Origin: an uncultured delta proteobacterium
GTDB lineage: Bacteria; Desulfobacterota; Binatia; UBA9968
Assembly (NCBI GenBank): GCA_963804165.1
Contig: CAWDPO010000009.1
Coordinates: 64,001 to 128,000 of the forward strand
Reading direction: 5' to 3'
Length of the DNA stretch: 64,000 bases
How positions within the stretch are numbered: position 1 is the stretch's first letter; each line of letters opens with the position of its first letter. Shown here piece by piece: positions 20,382-28,639 of this stretch. The notes under the pieces are model-generated. The model ran no database searches. It was not told the origin of the DNA and was given only the letters and a program-made list of their open reading frames with translations. Both the position numbers and the translations under genes were made by a program.

Positions 20382-21478
20382 TTAAACTTCCTTCGATTTG
20401 ATCGAATAGGTAAAGCTCTTCGCGTCGAGACTGTCCTTGCGGCCGTTCGCTGTCTCGGCCTGTGGATACATCAAATAGGCGATCTCCGAACCGCGAGATT
20501 GCGGCAGCTTTACATCGTGGGAGTAGTTATAGGGCAGCCAATTCATTTCCCATGCGCCGAATAGTTTTGCCCGCGCTTTTTTAACTTTGGGATCGTCGAT
20601 CGGCAGCTGTTCACCCGGCAGATTTTCTTCGAGCACGACCTTGCGCACATCCGCAGGATCCACCGGCACCCAACCGTACCCCGTCAAAAAAACTTCCGCC
20701 CGGCAGTGTTGCGCTCCGGTGATATCATCGGCTCTACCGAGACTTTTGAATTCCGCTGAATTGGCAACGCGCACGCCGTAAACGTCGCGCGCCGGCAAGC
20801 CGGCCGCGCGCGCCAAACCGACGTAAAGCGCGTTTAAGTCGGCGCATTTTCCGCCGAGATAGCCGGTTTCGAGCATTGTGGTGATATCGCCGATGCCGCA
20901 ACCTTTGACCTTAGGATCACGGAAGGTGTTGTCGACGATCCATTCGTAAATAGCCCGCGCTTTATCGACATCATTTTGTAGCCCCAGCACGATGCCTTTG
21001 GACGTCGTCGCGACGATGCCGTCGGTCCTAATGAACTTCGAGGGTTTGCGAAAATAATCGAGCACCGCCTTGTTCTCTTTGATCGCCGGATTGGGTTTCT
21101 GGCTCAGATCCACCGATCGATCTTGGGTCATAAAGCGGCTTTTGATTTCCAAGCTCGGGCTCTTTTCGCTCGCGGGCCCATTCCGCAAATACCAGTCCGG
21201 TTCCGACCTTGTCGGCCTGCGCCGCGCGCACGGTTTTATAATTTCCGCTCCAGCGTATCGGGCTCCCGTTTGAAATAGTCCGTGTTGGTCATCAGCGGCA
21301 CCGGCACCCAGGTGCGCACGGCGCCGACGGGATCGGCGATGTCGATCCGAGTCGTGACTTCGAAAGTGCGCCATTTCGCATCGTTGGCGTTCGCAAACGG
21401 TGCAAATTTCGGCAGACCGCCGAGCGCGAAGCCGGCAGAAACGGTCAGTCCTTGTTTGAGGAAATCGCGACGATTCAT
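20382..21478 (-). CDS. Tat-exported transglutaminase-like domain protein (frameshifted)
   Basis: MNRRDFLK Tat motif; GGKCADLN, HCRAEVF, WVPVDP catalytic Cys-His-Asp. Confidence 0.85.
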
Positions 21479-21644: not shown

Positions 21645-23490
21645 GTGCGCCCGTGAGGGCGCCACATCAGCACGGTGAAAGTCCGTGTCGGAGAAAGCCA
21701 CAACTCCGAAGCCGAAGGTAACTGCGTCGCCGCGAGGCGGGGTGGGGAGCAACCGGAGGCGAAGTGTCGGTCCGTAGGATAACGAACTCGATTCGGCGGA
21801 GAGCTGCGACGAGCCTGCGATGCCAAGGTGAAGTCCGAAAATCGCTGGTCACGCTGGCGTGGTGGAAAGCGATGACCAGGCAGTTCACGTGGTTGGAGAT
21901 GGAACGACAAGAAGGTGTGGCGAAGTAAGCGGGGAGACCTGCGCCGTAGGTGAGCGGCGCAGGAGTCAGAGCCTTCATGGTACCGCAGCGGCGAGGAGCC
22001 GCGAAAAGCGCTGAAAGTAAAGCAGCGCCGAGGGACGGGAGGCAGGAAGGTAGAAGCGTGAGCGATACGGAGTGGCAAAGCGAAAGCCAAGCGTCGGTAG
22101 TGCCTGAGAGGGCTACACAAGGCGCAGAGACCCAGGGACGAGACTGGACATGGGTAGAAGCCACAGTGTGGAGTGAGCGCATGTTGGCGGCGCTGGGAAA
22201 CGGCGTCAGAGGAGGCAAATGGTTTAGCCTGATCGATAAAGTGTACCGACCACAGACGCTCAAGGCGGCGTGGCAAAAAGTAAAGAGCAACGCCGGAGCA
22301 GCAGGAGTGGATGGACAGAGCGTGGAGCGGTTTGAGTCGCGGGCAGAACAGTATCTGGAAGAACTTGGGCAAACGCTTAAGGCGGGACAATACCGGCCAC
22401 AGCCGATCCGGCGTGTGGAGATTCCCAAAGGGGGCGGCAAGCTGCGCCCGCTGGGAATTCCTGTGGTCAAAGACCGCATCGTGCAAACGGCACTGAAGCT
22501 GGTGATCGAACCGATCTTTGAGCGCGAGTTTGAGGACTCCAGTCACGGTTTTCGCCCGGGTCGCGGCTGCAAAGAGGCGCTGAGCGAAGTGGATGAACTG
22601 ATCAAGGAAGGCTACGCCCATGTGGTGGATGCCGACTTGGACAGCTACTTTGACAGTATCCCAAATGAGCCGTTGATGGGTGAGGTCTCGGAGCGGATTA
22701 GCGACGGCAAAGTGTTGGATCTGATTCGTGCATTTCTGAATCAGGACATCATCGAAGGGATGAAACGATGGACACCGGTGGGAGGGACGCCGCAAGGAGC
22801 GGTGATCAGCCCGCTTCTGGCCAATATCTATCTTCATCCCTTGGACCGGCAGATGAGAGAGAAGGGCTACCGCATGGTGCGCTACGCCGATGACTTCGTA
22901 GTGCTTTGCCGCACGGCGCAACAAGCTCAAGGTGCGCTGGGCGAAGTGAGAGCCTGGGTCGAGCAAAAAGGGCTCAGGCTTAATGCAGACAAGACCCATG
23001 TAGGAGATTGTCGGCAAGCCGGGCAAGGTTTTGAGTTTCTCGGCTATCGCTTCGAGGCGGGGCAGCGCTGGGTAAGACCCAAGAGCTTCAAAGCGCTGCG
23101 CGAGCGCATCCGGCAGAAGACCCAACGCACGCGTGGGGACAGCTTGGCAAAGATCATCGAGGATCTTAACCCGATGCTGCGCGGTTGGTTTAACTACTTC
23201 AAGCATGCTCATTCGGTGGCACAGCTAGGAATCGACGGGTTTGTCCGTCGCAGGCTCCGCGCGATTCTGCGCAAGCAGGAGAAGCGACCGGGGATAGGAA
23301 AATGTTTCCATGACCATCTTCGGTGGCCCAATACTTTCTTCGCGGCACAAGGGTTGTTCACCATAACTGCGGCCCGTGTGTTAGCGAGCCAATCCCGATG
23401 AGGAAACTACCGACTGGAGAGCCGTGTGCGGGAGAACCGCACGCACGGTTCGGAGGGCGGGGACGGCGAAAGCCGTTCTCGACCCCCTAT
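21645..23490 (+). mobile_element. Group II intron (complete, about 1.85 kb, RT/maturase lacking endonuclease domain)
   Basis: 5' GTGCG; domain V GAGCCGTGTGCGGGAGAACCGCACGCACGGTTC at about 23418-23451; domain VI ending CCCTAT; EBS1 GATGCC (21819-21824) complementary to IBS1 GGCATC. Confidence 0.93.
22058..23401 (+). CDS. ltrA: Group II intron reverse transcriptase/maturase
   Basis: GAAGVDG, RPLGIP..DRIVQ, SHGFRPGR, GTPQGAVISPLLANIYL, RYADDF, thumb LRGWFNYF; likely GTG start 22058 (ORF open from 21950). Confidence 0.95.
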   Translation: MSDTEWQSESQASVVPERATQGAETQGRDWTWVEATVWSERMLAALGNGVRGGKWFSLIDKVYRPQTLKAAWQKVKSNAGAAGVDGQSVERFESRAEQYLEELGQTLKAGQYRPQPIRRVEIPKGGGKLRPLGIPVVKDRIVQTALKLVIEPIFEREFEDSSHGFRPGRGCKEALSEVDELIKEGYAHVVDADLDSYFDSIPNEPLMGEVSERISDGKVLDLIRAFLNQDIIEGMKRWTPVGGTPQGAVISPLLANIYLHPLDRQMREKGYRMVRYADDFVVLCRTAQQAQGALGEVRAWVEQKGLRLNADKTHVGDCRQAGQGFEFLGYRFEAGQRWVRPKSFKALRERIRQKTQRTRGDSLAKIIEDLNPMLRGWFNYFKHAHSVAQLGIDGFVRRRLRAILRKQEKRPGIGKCFHDHLRWPNTFFAAQGLFTITAARVLASQSR

Positions 23491-23894: not shown

Positions 23895-24359
23895 TCAAAG
23901 ACTTTTCAGAAATGCCAAAACCTCTTCAGGATGAGCTTCGGCCTTCTTGACAGTAGGCCAGTGTTTGATGACATCGCCTTTGGGACCGATCACTACCGTC
24001 GAGCGAATCGTTCCTTGTACTTCCTTGCCGTACATCATCTTCTTGCCGAAGGCGCCATACTTTTTCATCACTTCAGCCTTTGGATCCGACAGCAGGGTAA
24101 ACGGCAACTTGTAGTTGCCGGCGAATTTATTGTGCGATTCGATGCTGTCCTTGCTCACACCGAGCACAATCGCTCCGGATTTCTTCAATGGCGCATTCAA
24201 GTCGCGAAAGCCACAGGCCTCCTTGGTACAACCCGGCGTGTTGTCTTTCGGATAAAAGTAAAGCACGACGGTTTTGCCCTTGAAATCCTTCAGCGAGTGC
24301 TTCTTGCCATCGTTGCCGTCCAGGTTGAAAGATGGCGCCTTTTTTCCTTCAAGATTCAT
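23895..24359 (-). CDS. bcp: Peroxiredoxin Bcp/PrxQ (Cys form)
   Basis: [20 protein letters not shown]. Confidence 0.93.
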   Translation of the reverse strand: MNLEGKKAPSFNLDGNDGKKHSLKDFKGKTVVLYFYPKDNTPGCTKEACGFRDLNAPLKKSGAIVLGVSKDSIESHNKFAGNYKLPFTLLSDPKAEVMKKYGAFGKKMMYGKEVQGTIRSTVVIGPKGDVIKHWPTVKKAEAHPEEVLAFLKSL

Positions 24360-24433
24360 GCTCTAGTTTCTCCCCTTGCCAAGAACAGTTTCTGTTTTTC
24401 TGTCATTGTCGAAGTTCGATCACAAACCATGAT

Positions 24434-25231
24434 TCACAACGCCACGCGGTCGGCAGCGCGTGCCATGCGTCGAATCGGGTCGTAGTCACTGTCCAGCGCT
24501 TCGGCGAATCGCTCGAGACGTGCGCTCGCGAGCACATCACGACCTACTGAATCTTGGTGCATAGCGAGCAGCAAGGAGCGCACGTCGATTCGTAATGTCT
24601 CAGGCACGCGCGTGGAAATGACCCACGGAGGAATCGGGCTTGGCCCGATAGTCTCGATCACGCGAATCCGCCCGGCGATGTGATGGCGCTCGGCGAGAAT
24701 CCATTCCAATACCGTGCTATCGATAGCTGCGCCATCCACCGTACCGCGCAAAACCATTTCGAGCGACGTGGTATGCGCTCCGCTCTCGAGGGCTTCGCCA
24801 AAAAAAGCTTCGTTTTGTCCAAACTCGGATAGGTAAGCACGCACGACGTTATAGCCTGAATGTGATCGAGGCTCGTTGTAAGCCCACGCGGCGCCGCGGA
24901 GATCTAGAAGGGTTTGATAAGGACTGTGGCGTCGGACGATTATATCGGAGAAATAGACCGGCTTCCCAAGATAGCGATCACCGCCGGGAATCGGCACGGT
25001 AAGCAGCTCGATGTCCTTCGCCGATGTCTTGGCTTTTTGGACGTAGGGCAAACCGCAAAGCCACAAAATATCAATGTCACCGTCGTCAAATAGCCTTTCC
25101 CTTTCTTGCCACGGAATCCCCGTGACATATTCCGTCGACACGTCGAGGTGCTCGTTGATGTGGCCAGCGACGGCATGGCAAAAGCCTTCGCTATTCTCAG
25201 CCATACAGGAAGCGAGTTTCAGACGAAACAT
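24434..25231 (-). CDS. PhnD/SsuA-family substrate-binding-like protein, no signal peptide
   Basis: LCGLPY, YFSDIIV, SHSGY, GAHTTSL, GTVDGAAIDS. Confidence 0.8.
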   Translation of the reverse strand: MFRLKLASCMAENSEGFCHAVAGHINEHLDVSTEYVTGIPWQERERLFDDGDIDILWLCGLPYVQKAKTSAKDIELLTVPIPGGDRYLGKPVYFSDIIVRRHSPYQTLLDLRGAAWAYNEPRSHSGYNVVRAYLSEFGQNEAFFGEALESGAHTTSLEMVLRGTVDGAAIDSTVLEWILAERHHIAGRIRVIETIGPSPIPPWVISTRVPETLRIDVRSLLLAMHQDSVGRDVLASARLERFAEALDSDYDPIRRMARAADRVAL

Positions 25232-25249
25232 GAGCAAGAGAATTCCGCG

Positions 25250-25531
25250 CTACTCACTCACCTCAACGCCGCGCCAAAAAGCGATGTGATCCTTGATCGA
25301 CTTGGCGGCTTCTTTCGGTTCCGGATAGAACCAGGCGGCGTCTTGATTCACCTTATCGCCGACCTGCACGTGATAATAGCTGGCGAGCCCCTTCCACGGA
25401 CAAGTGCTGTGGGTATCGCTCGCCTTGAAAAATTCCGCCTTGATAGCATCGGATGGAAAATAATGGTTGCCCTCGACGACAATGGTCTTATCGGATTCTG
25501 CGAGCAAGGTATTCTCCCAGGTAGCTTTCAT
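25250..25531 (-). CDS. DUF427 domain-containing protein
   Basis: VEGNHYFP, TCPWKGLASYY, DAAWFYPEP, IKDHIAFW. Confidence 0.9.
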   Translation of the reverse strand: MKATWENTLLAESDKTIVVEGNHYFPSDAIKAEFFKASDTHSTCPWKGLASYYHVQVGDKVNQDAAWFYPEPKEAAKSIKDHIAFWRGVEVSE

Positions 25532-25555
25532 GTATTGCCTCCTTTAAGCCCAGAC

Positions 25556-26918
25556 TTACGAATCGGATACACAGCGAAACTTGGCAAACACATAGGGATA
25601 ATGCGCTTGATACCAATTGCGAAGGCTCGGCCGCACGAGATCCGCGTCCGTCGCCCAGGAAGCGCCTTTGACGACGAAATGCTTACCGTCAAAAAAATCC
25701 GCCGAGTACTCCGGATAGCTCTGGATGTAGGGCGTAAATCCCGGCAAAGGAGCGAATGGCGTGTCGGTCAATTCCCAACCGTTGCCGACCAGCTCGGAAA
25801 CTCCCCAGCGGCTGGTACCAGCGGGACTGGCGCCAACCGGCGCCGGTGACCAAAGGCTAAAATTAAAGTTGCCGTGCGACTTGTCGGGGTTGCCGTTGCC
25901 CCACGGATACTGAGACTCGTGTTCGTCCGGACCGTAATAGGCTGCCCGGTGAAACTCGGCTTCGGTCGGCAGTCGCTTGCCGCACCAGCGCGCATACGCG
26001 CGCGCTTCCGCGAGACTAGCATACACGGGCCAGTTGGCGACCTTCTCGAGTGCAAATTCGTCGAATATCGCACGATAAGTCCATTGACCATTTAGCCAGC
26101 ACCAGCACGATGGATGTCGCTTATTCTCGAGATTCTTCCAGCGCCAATCTTCCGGCCGCCAATAACTTTCTTCTTCATATCCGCCCGAGTCCATGAACTC
26201 GAAAAATTGACCGTTGGTCACCGGCAGCGAATCGATCGCGAACGCCGGCACATCGACAATCGTCTGCGCAAACTCATTGTCCCAGCCGAAATCCAGCTCG
26301 TCGAAATTCGCGCCCAGGCGCGCTTTCCCCGCCGGTATTTTGAATGGTGCGGCGCTGTGGCGCCGGCTGATAGGAATAGCGGAGCGGCTGCTGCGGCCTG
26401 GTCATTTTGTCGATGGGTAATTGTTGCAACATGTACAACAACGTTTCCTGGTGCATGTATTCATGCTCGAGCACCAGCTGAAAAACTCGACCCCGCTGTA
26501 ACATGGGATCGCTTGATTCCGACAGGGAAAGCATATCGAGCGATTCCAAGACCGCGTCACGCACGTTATCGCGGTATTCGACCGTGTCGCTCAAGCTCGG
26601 CCAGGCGTCGGGAACCTCCGGGTGCCAGTGGCACTCTCCGGTATCGACGTCGGGATCGACGCCACGGCAAAACAGATCGTCGAAATAAGCATTGAAAGAT
26701 TCCCACTTCAGAATGGCGCTGCAGACTTGATTCCAGTAAAAGGCTGGCAGATGACCTACATAAAAAATAAACGGATGACGCCACACGATCGGTTTGTCCA
26801 GCAAATCTTGCCCGCGAACCAGCGCAAAAATTTGATCTGTGCGCGCCCATGCCGAAACAAAATTGTCGCGGAGAAACTCTGCCTTGTCGTGTTCGCTGCG
26901 TCGTAACGGTCTTGCCAT
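25556..26918 (-). CDS. EgtB/Egt1-like non-heme iron sulfoxide synthase (DinB_2 + FGE-sulfatase fold), one frameshift near 26340
   Basis: RHPFIFYVGH, RGVDPDVD..CHWH, HEYMHQETL (His triad), FGWDNE, RLPTEAE, GNGWE, YSADFFDGKH. Confidence 0.85.
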
Positions 26919-26957
26919 AAGCGTCTCCTGCCGTGATTCGTTTTGGCTATATACTTA

Positions 26958-26972
26958 ATAGGATTTGCCTAT
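26958..26972. promoter_or_regulatory. Putative LysR operator ATAGG-N5-CCTAT (T-N11-A)
   Basis: Perfect 5-bp-arm palindrome 40 nt upstream of the EgtB-like start, next to the LysR gene. Confidence 0.55.
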
Positions 26973-27015
26973 GGAAGAGGCCAAGTCAAGACCCCGCGCG
27001 AAAAATATGCCGCGC

Positions 27016-27927
27016 TTAGCTCAGCTTGAGGAATTCACGGAAAGCTTTTGCGATCGGGTGCAGGGGGCGGCGCCGGTGGAAGACTTGGTAGAAGTCGCGG
27101 GCCATGCTCAGCCCGCGAACCGGCACTTCGACGATACTCCCCTCCGCCAGTTCGTGGCGAATGGAAATGCGCGACAAAATAGATATTCCGAACCCCGCCA
27201 TCAACGCCTCTTTGACCGCTTCCGTGCTGCCAAGCTCCATCGAGACATTCAACTGATCGTCGGGGACTCGGCGACCTTTGGCGAGCAGTTGGCGGAAAGA
27301 ATCGAGCGTGCCGGAGCCGTGCTCTCGCGAGATGAACTTTTCGTTTCGTAGGTCGGCGACTTCGACAAACTGGCGCCGGCACCACGGATGCCCTTTGGGA
27401 ACCGCGAGAACCATTTCGTCGTCCCAAATCTTTTCGAAGCAGAGCCTCACGTCGTGTCCCTTGAATCCGACGATTCCGAGCTCCACCTTGCCGTCTAGAA
27501 CATCTTCGACGATCCCCGCCGAGTCGCTAATGCGCAGGACGGGTTTCACCGCCGGATATTTTTTTGTGAACGCGCCGAGTTTCAGCGGCAACAGGTATTC
27601 GCCCGGGATGTTGCTCCCGCCGACCCAAAGTTCCCCGCTCAGGGTGCCGTGGAACTGTTCCACCGCCGCCACGGTTTCCCGCTTGAATACGATAAGATCT
27701 TTCGCCCTTGCGGCAACCATGAGTCCCAGGGGAGTGAGACTCACCTTGCCCGGAATGCGATAGAGCAGTTTACCGTCGACCGCCTTCTCCAATTCCTGAA
27801 CGTGTGCGCTGACCGTCGGTTGGCGCAGCGACAAAAGCTCCGCCGCCTGGGAAAAACTTTTTAGCTCTGCGACCCAGTAGAAAATTTCCAGTTTGTGAAG
27901 ATCTAAGTCTGCTTTGAGCTTGGGCAT
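27016..27927 (-). CDS. LysR family transcriptional regulator (CysL / selenium-metabolism-associated type)
   Basis: HTH SFSQAAELLSLRQPTVSAHVQELE, GSNIPGEYLLP, REHGSGT, GSTEAVK. Confidence 0.9.
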   Translation of the reverse strand: MPKLKADLDLHKLEIFYWVAELKSFSQAAELLSLRQPTVSAHVQELEKAVDGKLLYRIPGKVSLTPLGLMVAARAKDLIVFKRETVAAVEQFHGTLSGELWVGGSNIPGEYLLPLKLGAFTKKYPAVKPVLRISDSAGIVEDVLDGKVELGIVGFKGHDVRLCFEKIWDDEMVLAVPKGHPWCRRQFVEVADLRNEKFISREHGSGTLDSFRQLLAKGRRVPDDQLNVSMELGSTEAVKEALMAGFGISILSRISIRHELAEGSIVEVPVRGLSMARDFYQVFHRRRPLHPIAKAFREFLKLS

Positions 27928-28041
27928 CGAGATTGGCAAGAGGCACAATCGTGATCGAAGGATGCGAGTATGAGAACCCTGTCCGGGGGGAGCATGGTGA
28001 GCGCGAAACCCGCCATGCTCCCTTTGGAAACTGATGGAAAA

Positions 28042-28509
28042 TTACTTCTGCAAAAATTCCAGAACTTCCGCCGGATGCGCTTCCGCATTGGCAACCGGAA
28101 TCCAGTGCTTCTTTACTGTGCCGTCAGGTCCGATCAATGCAGTCGAGCGAATCGGCCCCTCGACGGTCTCACCCTGGGCATTTTGCCGGGGACCCCACGC
28201 GCCATAGACTTTCATGACCTCCACTTGGGGGTCGGACAATAGGGCGAACGGCAAGTTGAATTTAGCGATGAACTGATTATGTGACTCGATACTGTCTCTG
28301 CTGACTCCCAAGACCACGGTATTGGCCTGTGTTACCGTTTGAATAGCGTCGCGGAACCCGCACGCTTCTTTGGTTCAACCGGGTGTATCGTCCTTGGGAT
28401 AAAACCAAAGAATGACGTTTTTCCCGGCGTAGTCAGAAAGCGAATGCTTTTTGCCGTCGCTCCCCGGCAGCGTAAACGCCGGCGCTTTTTGCCCCTCTAA
28501 ATTTGCCAT
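28042..28509 (-). CDS. bcp: Selenocysteine-containing peroxiredoxin (Bcp/PrxQ family), TGA at codon 45
   Basis: ATG 28509 after AGGAGG reads [10 protein letters not shown]...[11 protein letters not shown](TGA 28375-28377)-TKEACGFRD in frame into ORF 28042..28317; aligns with the Cys paralogue. Confidence 0.85.
28345..28377 (-). promoter_or_regulatory. Putative bacterial SECIS element
   Basis: UGA-ACCAAAGA-AGCGU-GCGG-GUU-CCGC-G-ACGCU hairpin; absent from the synonymous region of the Cys paralogue. Confidence 0.7.
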
Positions 28510-28639
28510 GCACACCTCCTGTAGAGTTTGGATTATAGCTATTGCTTTATCACACCGACAAACCGTTGATCAAACTTCCACGCCGCTTTCTTCGCTCTGC
28601 ATTGTCAACATCTGATCCAGGCGGTATATATTCAAGATC

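Follow-up and report, generated by a model that had tools for sequence, protein, structure and literature searches.

The locus at positions 23895–28509 of a 64,000-nucleotide stretch of DNA, hereafter the window, from an uncultured delta proteobacterium of the Binatia lineage UBA9968 (assembly GCA_963804165.1, contig CAWDPO010000009.1, positions 64,001 to 128,000 of the forward strand) holds six co-oriented minus-strand genes. With moderate confidence, we read it as an ergothioneine and peroxiredoxin operon controlled by a LysR regulator of the selenium-associated family (LysR_Se), with hercynine coming from an egtD gene at another locus, and not as a new selenium pathway. Each part is of a known kind; their joint wiring is not described in the literature searched, where queries on EgtB types IV and V, on selenoneine with LysR and on ergothioneine–peroxiredoxin–EgtB operons gave nothing on it among the titles and first lines of abstracts. 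The genes were assigned from the translations of open reading frames (ORFs) and from Pfam and NCBIfam profile matches, giving the following features, in the direction of transcription.

28532–28561, minus strand: promoter-like site 5′ of the selenocysteine (Sec) peroxiredoxin gene, TTGTCG-18-TATAAT; consensus scan, 10/12 matches
28042–28509, minus strand: Sec-peroxiredoxin, PrxQ/BCP-type, TxxU; translation with TGA read as U, Pfam AhpC-TSA 1e-37, TGA in 21 orthologous genes
28345–28366, minus strand: hairpin resembling a selenocysteine insertion sequence (SECIS); consensus fold of 16 sequences, stem conserved in TGA forms
27988–28022, minus strand: hairpin between the Sec-peroxiredoxin and LysR genes; fold −31.2 kcal/mol, z = −3.0
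27016–27948, minus strand: LysR_Se-type transcriptional regulator (NF040786); NCBIfam 257.5 bits, cut-off 250
26947–26972, minus strand: operator array ATAG-N7-CTAT-N7-ATAG; half-sites invariant in 19/19 orthologous spacers
25556–26918, minus strand: EgtB-IV-like non-heme-iron sulfoxide synthase, DinB_2 plus FGE-sulfatase, frame broken; Pfam, NCBIfam and frames read by hand
25250–25531, minus strand: DUF427 (PF04248), small beta-tent protein; Pfam 1e-32, alignment of 23 sequences
24434–25237, minus strand: PhnD-fold protein, cytoplasmic, putatively of the AioX/ArrX oxyanion-binding subfamily; Pfam Phosphonate-bd, with AioX/ArrX as best solved relatives
23895–24359, minus strand: Cys-peroxiredoxin, PrxQ/BCP-type, paralogue of the Sec form; Pfam 1e-39

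An original prediction, made from the window alone, had described six co-oriented genes bracketed by two peroxiredoxins, and this layout is present in full. The same order was seen in each of the 14 same-genus loci fetched and in 35 of the 79 fetched from public genomes; these 35, which share the peroxiredoxin, the LysR and the same flanks, are hereafter the lineage loci (their contigs overlap in part with those of the 14 same-genus loci), and the other 44 lie outside the lineage. Neighbouring ORFs of the fetched loci were scanned with Pfam, leaving out the five longest ORFs. Because the order recurs and the operator described below is invariant, the layout is more than chance. Its interior is less constant. 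DUF427 is encoded in 19 of the 35 lineage loci, as opposed to 2 of the 44 others, both of these being acidobacterial egtB–egtD–DUF427 clusters, and the PhnD-like gene is present in 17 of the 35, so that the trio of EgtB-like, DUF427 and PhnD-like genes that the original prediction took as a module is not a fixed unit. A synthase orthologue was found in 17 of 24 same-genus genomes sampled; three fairly complete ones (G004, G007 and G023) have no synthase orthologue and no close LysR match (E at most 1e-60). A search of sequencing runs returned shares of 0.13 or less, with the whole stretch in no run.

The synthase is most likely, judging by its sequence, an ordinary hercynine–thiol sulfoxide synthase relocated to a new neighbourhood, a reading that follows from its active-site motif, its invariant active-site columns and its place in a tree. 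Its best solved relative is EgtB-IV (PDB 8vih; phmmer, 185 bits), ahead of EgtB-I and OvoA. To classify it we used the 17-position composite motifs given in a methods passage and Supplementary Table 4 of the ovoselenol preprint (Kayrouz et al.), with positions mapped by our own reading of alignments with 8vih, 8khq and 4x8b. On this mapping, the synthase reads RHYH--D?HMHYYNWYY, next to the RxYH--DxHxHYxNWFx that the preprint lists for EgtB-IV. The R, Y and H of positions 1, 3 and 4 and the D of position 7 are in place, in the segments WRHPFIFYVGH and GIDPD that align to 8vih and 8khq, and the corresponding R45, Y51, H54 and D86 do not vary among 37 sequences. The hercynine-binding N–W pair of positions 14 and 15 is likewise there: RNWY aligns to RNWF of 8vih and RNWD of 4x8b, N432 and W433 are invariant in the 37 homologues, and OvoA, which accepts histidine, has RYAF, that is Y–A, where the synthase has N–W. 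The pattern is thus that of the OvoA branch with a hercynine-type N–W. Its only departure from the EgtB-IV motif is at position 16, where the residue is Y and not F, and a strict rule places the enzyme in ‘Other’.

The iron ligands, the catalytic Tyr and the R–N–W residues do not vary across the 37 homologues, the egtD-adjacent ones included, and outside the lineage egtD accompanies the synthase homologue in 32 of the 44 loci and an EgtU-like transporter does so in 15. In a quick maximum-likelihood tree of 69 homologues with SenA as outgroup (eight truncated or frameshifted loci were omitted beforehand and two were dropped for internal stops), the lineage forms one clade with a Shimodaira–Hasegawa-like approximate likelihood ratio test value of 99, nested among egtD-adjacent homologues. 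The label ‘Egt1-like’ given by the original prediction is thus imprecise: Egt1 is a fungal EgtD–EgtB fusion, and the synthase has no methyltransferase domain and carries an EgtB-IV-like active-site motif instead. On this point the interpretation of the original prediction is not supported, the enzyme resembling an ordinary hercynine-plus-thiol synthase in both motif and the company of its relatives.

Where the hercynine would come from is indicated by the rest of the genus. The window encodes no EgtD, SenB or SenC, as the original prediction had observed, and neither egtD nor a sen gene stands beside the synthase in any of the 35 lineage loci, senB and senC being absent from all of them. Other genomes of the genus contain PF10017 (EgtD) in 30 of 30 cases, and SenA and SenB pass their cut-offs in 23 and 24 of the 30, respectively; leaving out G005, an unpublished genome, the counts are 29/29, 22/29 and 23/29. 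One cluster was annotated, in genome G014, where egtD occurs with SenB (339 bits, cut-off 300), SenA (490 bits, cut-off 420) and an EgtUV-like transporter. The original prediction had set against itself the case of an ordinary enzyme with its egtD partner elsewhere, and this case holds in part, with egtD at another locus in 30 of 30 congeners and beside senA and senB in G014. In that cluster (C29:291000–306000, locus L135), several genes separate senB–senA from egtD and the transporter, namely a GlcNAcase-like gene, an alpha/beta hydrolase, a short FGE-domain protein, a LysE-type exporter and a fatty-acid-hydroxylase-like gene. The flank of the G014 cluster shares a single ORF with the present assembly, a result that points neither to loss of the sen/egtD cluster nor to an assembly gap.

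The regulator is of a selenium-associated family. Among the LysR copies of the assembly it is the only one above the cut-off of NF040786, the selenium metabolism-associated LysR family; the other three score 151 bits or less. Translation of its gene probably begins at the ATG at 27927. Its context also is that of LysR_Se, a family proposed by Lin et al. 2015 (PMC5322559), in that the genome decodes Sec and the LysR gene is adjacent to the Sec-peroxiredoxin gene. An archaeal member, HrsM, is described as repressing Cys isogenes at adequate selenium (PMC11097638), which gives a precedent for selenium deciding whether a Sec or a Cys isoform is made (PMC5322559, PMC11097638).

Behind the regulator lies a conserved DNA element. 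The T-N11-A palindrome that the original prediction had noticed between the LysR and oxidase genes, ATAGGCAAATCCTAT, is located at 26958–26972 and is part of the longer ATAG-N7-CTAT-N7-ATAG array, approximately 28 nucleotides upstream of the synthase ATG. None of the three half-sites varies in any of the 19 LysR-to-synthase spacers aligned, whose remaining sequence is divergent, and an exact copy of the array is found in 24 of the 35 lineage loci, always shortly 3′ of the LysR gene. The 7.5-Mb assembly contains the triple array a single time. The dyad alone occurs 28 times, as opposed to approximately 68 expected from composition; only the triple array is informative. In three loci (L050, L066 and L122), the gene after LysR and the array is a peroxiredoxin and not the synthase: the array follows LysR whichever gene is next, and hence marks the promoter of the operon behind the regulator. 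We infer that a candidate core promoter, CTTnCA ... TATATA, which is likewise conserved, lies partly under the array; a scan for consensus promoters and terminators gave counts no higher than those of shuffled sequences and did not flag this candidate. A second exact copy of the array lies just downstream of the Cys-peroxiredoxin gene in one locus (L084:9367–9392). As to the LysR-controlled module linking selenium and sulfur status that the original prediction had proposed, it is supported in part: the family match, the conserved operator before the synthase operon and the HrsM precedent speak for the control element, and the synthase looks ordinary.

The Sec-peroxiredoxin is a real selenoprotein. 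Its in-frame TGA (28375–28377) lies in the motif PGUTKEAC, at the peroxidatic position inside a TxxU motif (TPGU), with a resolving Cys five residues after the Sec; Bcp-type peroxiredoxins of this form (COG1225) are tabulated as a selenoprotein family in PMC9312934. Starting 11 nucleotides after the U of the UGA, a 9-base-pair stem with a GUU apical loop forms the SECIS-like hairpin, which is kept in 16 of 16 TGA forms folded. Approximately 30 bases 3′ of the TGA are near-invariant, synonymous sites included, in 21 orthologous TGA-bearing genes; 7 forms with a Cys codon (TGC or TGT) differ at synonymous sites and do not have the stem. The hairpin is thus supported by conservation, with no covariation seen. 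The assembly also contains tRNA-Sec, selD, selA and selB, the last three in one selD–selB–selA cluster. An assignment to PrxU was rejected (53 bits, cut-off 270). Around this gene, the upstream TTGTCG-18-TATAAT site is weak evidence, the region's count of such sites being not above a shuffled control, and the strong hairpin at 27988–28022 may be a terminator or attenuator that lacks a U-tract, as far as the predicted fold indicates.

The second peroxiredoxin shares 63% of its residues (95/152) with the first. The bracketing by Sec and Cys versions described in the original prediction is true of the window and is not fixed in relatives. Of 21 loci with both flanking genes, 10 have Sec in the upstream and Cys in the downstream gene, 5 have Sec in both, 4 have Cys upstream and Sec downstream, and 2 have Cys in both, so that at least one flanking peroxiredoxin carries Sec in 19 of the 21. 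Separately, ten loci (L050, L056, L058, L063–L068 and L102) contain a third, distant peroxiredoxin-like gene between the Nudix and Rieske genes, approximately 3–4 kb upstream of the synthase, with TGA at the peroxidatic position and 36–39% identity to the flanking genes; in these loci, LysR precedes the first peroxiredoxin.

These same observations could be read as an oxidative-stress island without selenium sensing, in which LysR answers a peroxide or redox cue, an ergothioneine cassette was inserted into a peroxiredoxin–LysR–peroxiredoxin unit and the Sec-peroxiredoxin is a mere neighbour. Both flanking genes are indeed peroxiredoxins, the cassette between them is variable in its DUF427 and PhnD-like members, the whole LysR–synthase locus was not found in G004, G007 and G023, and the regulator barely passes the NF040786 cut-off. 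The regulator itself argues the other way. The OxyR model gives only 85 bits where the cut-off is 329; a single Cys is common to the regulator and its orthologue in genome G013, hence there is no OxyR-like Cys pair; and the next-best LysR copies reach only about 150 bits on NF040786, which sets this LysR apart. Together with the recurrence of Sec in at least one flanking peroxiredoxin, this leaves the stress island an unlikely reading, if one to be kept in view.

The synthase gene is broken in this assembly, a break that the original prediction had missed, with its DinB part (26274–26918) and its FGE part in different frames owing to one extra base at 26343/26344. If the base at 26343 is skipped, a 453-residue frame without a stop results, 69% identical to the intact 450-residue orthologue of G013. 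A 151-nucleotide contig from a soil sequencing run (X2, depth 2) is identical to positions 26271–26422 save that one base is omitted at 26343. Most same-genus orthologues fetched have intact frames of approximately 450–480 residues and a few are split, in assemblies of few contigs; such few-contig sister assemblies show many frame breaks at the same locus. Because the X2 contig lacks the base, the frame is otherwise open and other genes are split too, the frameshift is most likely an assembly error.

If this genome lost the egtD/sen cluster and the synthase then decayed, the gene would be a true pseudogene and the locus a relic here; this would account for the broken frame, for the failure to find egtD, senA, senB and egtU in the assembly and for the group II intron that landed beside the locus. 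We regard it as improbable: the 453 codons contain one break and are otherwise free of stops, the X2 contig has the same sequence minus the extra base, selB and other genes expected to be whole look split as well, and the assembly is 81% complete.

Split genes are seen at several places in the assembly. The Tat (twin-arginine translocation)-signal transglutaminase-like gene of the window, 20382–21478 on the minus strand, is divided into an 80-residue N-terminal ORF (21236–21478) and a 330-residue ORF (20382–21374); its G013 orthologue is a single ORF of 365 residues, and the split is probably another assembly indel error. In the selD–selB–selA cluster (C16:139949–144339), whose selD has an in-frame TGA, selB matches two separate open frames of 424 and 92 residues, which suggests that frame breaks fall in a gene needed to read the genome's own TGA codons. 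A second gene with an FGE-sulfatase domain (C6:180698–181373) consists of two overlapping match pieces with one TGA inside and could be either a frameshift or a further selenoprotein candidate.

Two small proteins complete the operon. DUF427 has been described as a beta-tent fold with no known function (PMC4287342); PDB 3djm is the sole solved relative found, and one Cys is invariant in an alignment of 23 sequences. A predicted complex of the G013 synthase and DUF427 scored 0.00, which is uninformative in either direction. In Table 1 of Abbott et al. 2026 (PMC13674229), DUF427 is co-encoded with 5.7% of non-heme-iron sulfoxide synthase (NHISS) genes and ABC_peri_selen with 3.1%; that paper gives DUF427 by frequency only, with no function and no LysR_Se or peroxiredoxin context.

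The PhnD-like protein has no signal peptide, as the original prediction had said: most of the 12 orthologues read have stops a few codons ahead of the first beta-strand motif. Among solved structures, the protein is closest to the oxyanion-binding proteins AioX and ArrX (88 and 74 bits; PDB 6esk, 6esv and 6x6b). Of the AioX pocket residues Y88, C106, Y131, S161, S163, H192 and D210, mapped by residue spacing, six of seven are identical and Y88 is replaced by W; the arsenite-ligating Cys (AioX Cys106) is kept. All seven positions are invariant in 12 PhnD-like orthologues, as are two further Cys. AioX and ArrX are periplasmic and paired with a kinase, and here there is neither a signal peptide nor a kinase gene in the locus. 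Similarity to the putative selenate-binding family TIGR04553 is weak (66.6 bits, cut-off 250). A search of 400 further genomes of the phylum gave no close relative of the protein; the homologues there have 37% identity or less and are mostly 290–370 residues long, some approximately 600.

That these helpers and the synthase use selenite or selenocysteine to form a C–Se bond on hercynine or histidine, independently of SenB and SenC, is very improbable, since for all the selenium context of the locus (Sec-peroxiredoxin and NF040786 LysR), the Y at motif position 16 as in SenA and OvsA, the Cys of the AioX-like protein that could bind selenite and its weak TIGR04553 match, the thiol-side motif residues R, Y and D are those of the Cys-using OvoA/EgtB-IV branch, the active-site columns are identical in egtD-adjacent homologues from phyla without a selenium context, SenA and SenB already serve selenoneine synthesis in the genus, and the PhnD-like gene is missing in about half of the loci.

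The reading we prefer, a LysR_Se-controlled ergothioneine and peroxiredoxin operon, would work as follows. The genes stand in the order Sec-PrxQ, LysR_Se, three-half-site operator, synthase, DUF427, AioX-like protein and second PrxQ. The synthase is predicted to be a hercynine-accepting, cysteine-using EgtB of the OvoA-like branch, similar to EgtB-IV; its hercynine would be supplied by egtD at a separate locus of the genus, which in the one annotated cluster is beside senA and senB. It would thereby open the sulfur, or ergothioneine, branch, to be completed by a C–S lyase encoded elsewhere. LysR_Se would bind the operator and set transcription of the operon by selenium status, and the overlap of operator and core promoter would fit repression, like that exerted by archaeal HrsM on Cys isogenes. 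The AioX-like protein may bind a thiol-reactive oxyanion, for example selenite or arsenite, through its conserved Cys, and DUF427 would be an accessory whose chemistry we leave unassigned.

Several observations weigh against this reading. On the side of the enzyme, an intact orthologue of the synthase falls below the cut-offs of all three NCBIfam models compared (OvoA_Nterm TIGR04344, 247 of 400; SenA NF041186, 226 of 420; EgtB TIGR03440, 218 of 360), the one-position miss of the strict EgtB-IV motif leaves its substrates uncertain, and the evidence on the frameshift is a single depth-2 contig from a different sample. On the side of the pathway, egtD, senA, senB and egtU were not found in this 81% complete assembly, and if they are truly absent the synthase has no substrate in this genome; the locus itself encodes no C–S lyase. 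On the side of control, the regulator exceeds the family cut-off by only 7 bits, none of the 13 sen/egtD loci examined contains the operator motif, so that joint control of both branches is not seen, and the literature examined yielded no experiment tying a bacterial LysR_Se to selenium sensing. Moreover, the downstream peroxiredoxin carries Sec in 9 of 20 related loci, which weakens its role as a simple ‘selenium-free backup’.

A bolder version, to which we give rather little credence, takes the locus as the sulfur half of a chalcogen switch in a genus that makes selenoneine with SenA, SenB and EgtD: LysR_Se, as a bacterial counterpart of HrsM, would read selenium and, through the operator, decide whether hercynine goes to ergothioneine and which peroxiredoxin isoform is made, with the AioX-like protein as a binder of selenite or another oxyanion that feeds or buffers the signal and DUF427 as a hitherto unrecognised partner of sulfoxide synthases.

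Around the locus, the upstream flank is divergent and encodes a GcvT/YgfZ-like protein, a Rieske ferredoxin and a Nudix hydrolase, and the downstream flank encodes the Tat-signal transglutaminase-like protein. Between the latter and the Cys-peroxiredoxin gene lies a group II intron on the plus strand (21726–23488, with matches to Rfam RF02001 and RF00029), whose ORF at 21950–23401 is a reverse transcriptase/maturase. The intron was not seen at the equivalent place in related loci; locus L077 has a similar reverse transcriptase fragment elsewhere.

Ergothioneine and selenoneine are the sulfur and selenium members of a pair of one antioxidant, and we know of no mechanism by which a cell chooses between them. 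The lineage has both routes, and it keeps the sulfur-route synthase and the peroxiredoxins directly behind the genome's only selenium-family LysR and a conserved operator. To our knowledge, selenium-dependent control of the LysR_Se type has so far been demonstrated only for archaeal HrsM, and the locus offers a concrete promoter–regulator pair with which such control can be tested in bacteria. It also provides a handle on DUF427, an unexplained family co-encoded with approximately 6% of synthases in the published survey, and on a relative of the arsenite sensors that is cytoplasmic and still has the ligating Cys.

Compared with known systems, the locus is closest to HrsM of Methanococcus in its control. 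Both regulators belong to the same NCBIfam family and are encoded beside a selenoprotein gene, and here too the LysR would, by its position, control an operon often holding the Cys isoform of that selenoprotein. As opposed to the HrsM system, the host is bacterial, the target operon includes the synthase of a small-molecule antioxidant, regulator and target are co-directional, and the downstream peroxiredoxin is itself a Sec form in nearly half of the related loci (9/20). In its chemistry, the locus is closest to EgtB-IV (8vih and 8vig), its best solved match with a full-length alignment, the R..Y.H, D, HxH, Y and N–W positions being common to both; homologues of the synthase clade are usually beside egtD (32/44 loci), as opposed to the lineage synthase, which stands apart from egtD (0/35 loci) inside a peroxiredoxin/LysR_Se locus, has Y and not F at position 16 (‘Other’ by the strict rule) and matches 8vih at only 185 bits.

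The senA–senB–(senC)/egtD cluster of the same genus would use hercynine from the same EgtD, but it is a separate locus, was not found in this assembly and does not carry the operator motif; SenA is a distant paralogue of the synthase, with approximately 36% identity over the C-terminal part. AioX and ArrX are the best solved relatives of the PhnD-like protein, which keeps six of the seven AioX pocket residues, Cys106 included, and differs in having no signal peptide, no AioS/AioR-type kinase in the locus, Trp in place of Tyr88 and two extra invariant Cys. Finally, beside the co-occurrence of NHISS and DUF427 genes tabulated in PMC13674229, DUF427 adjacency is here concentrated in the lineage (19/35 loci) and rare elsewhere (2/44).

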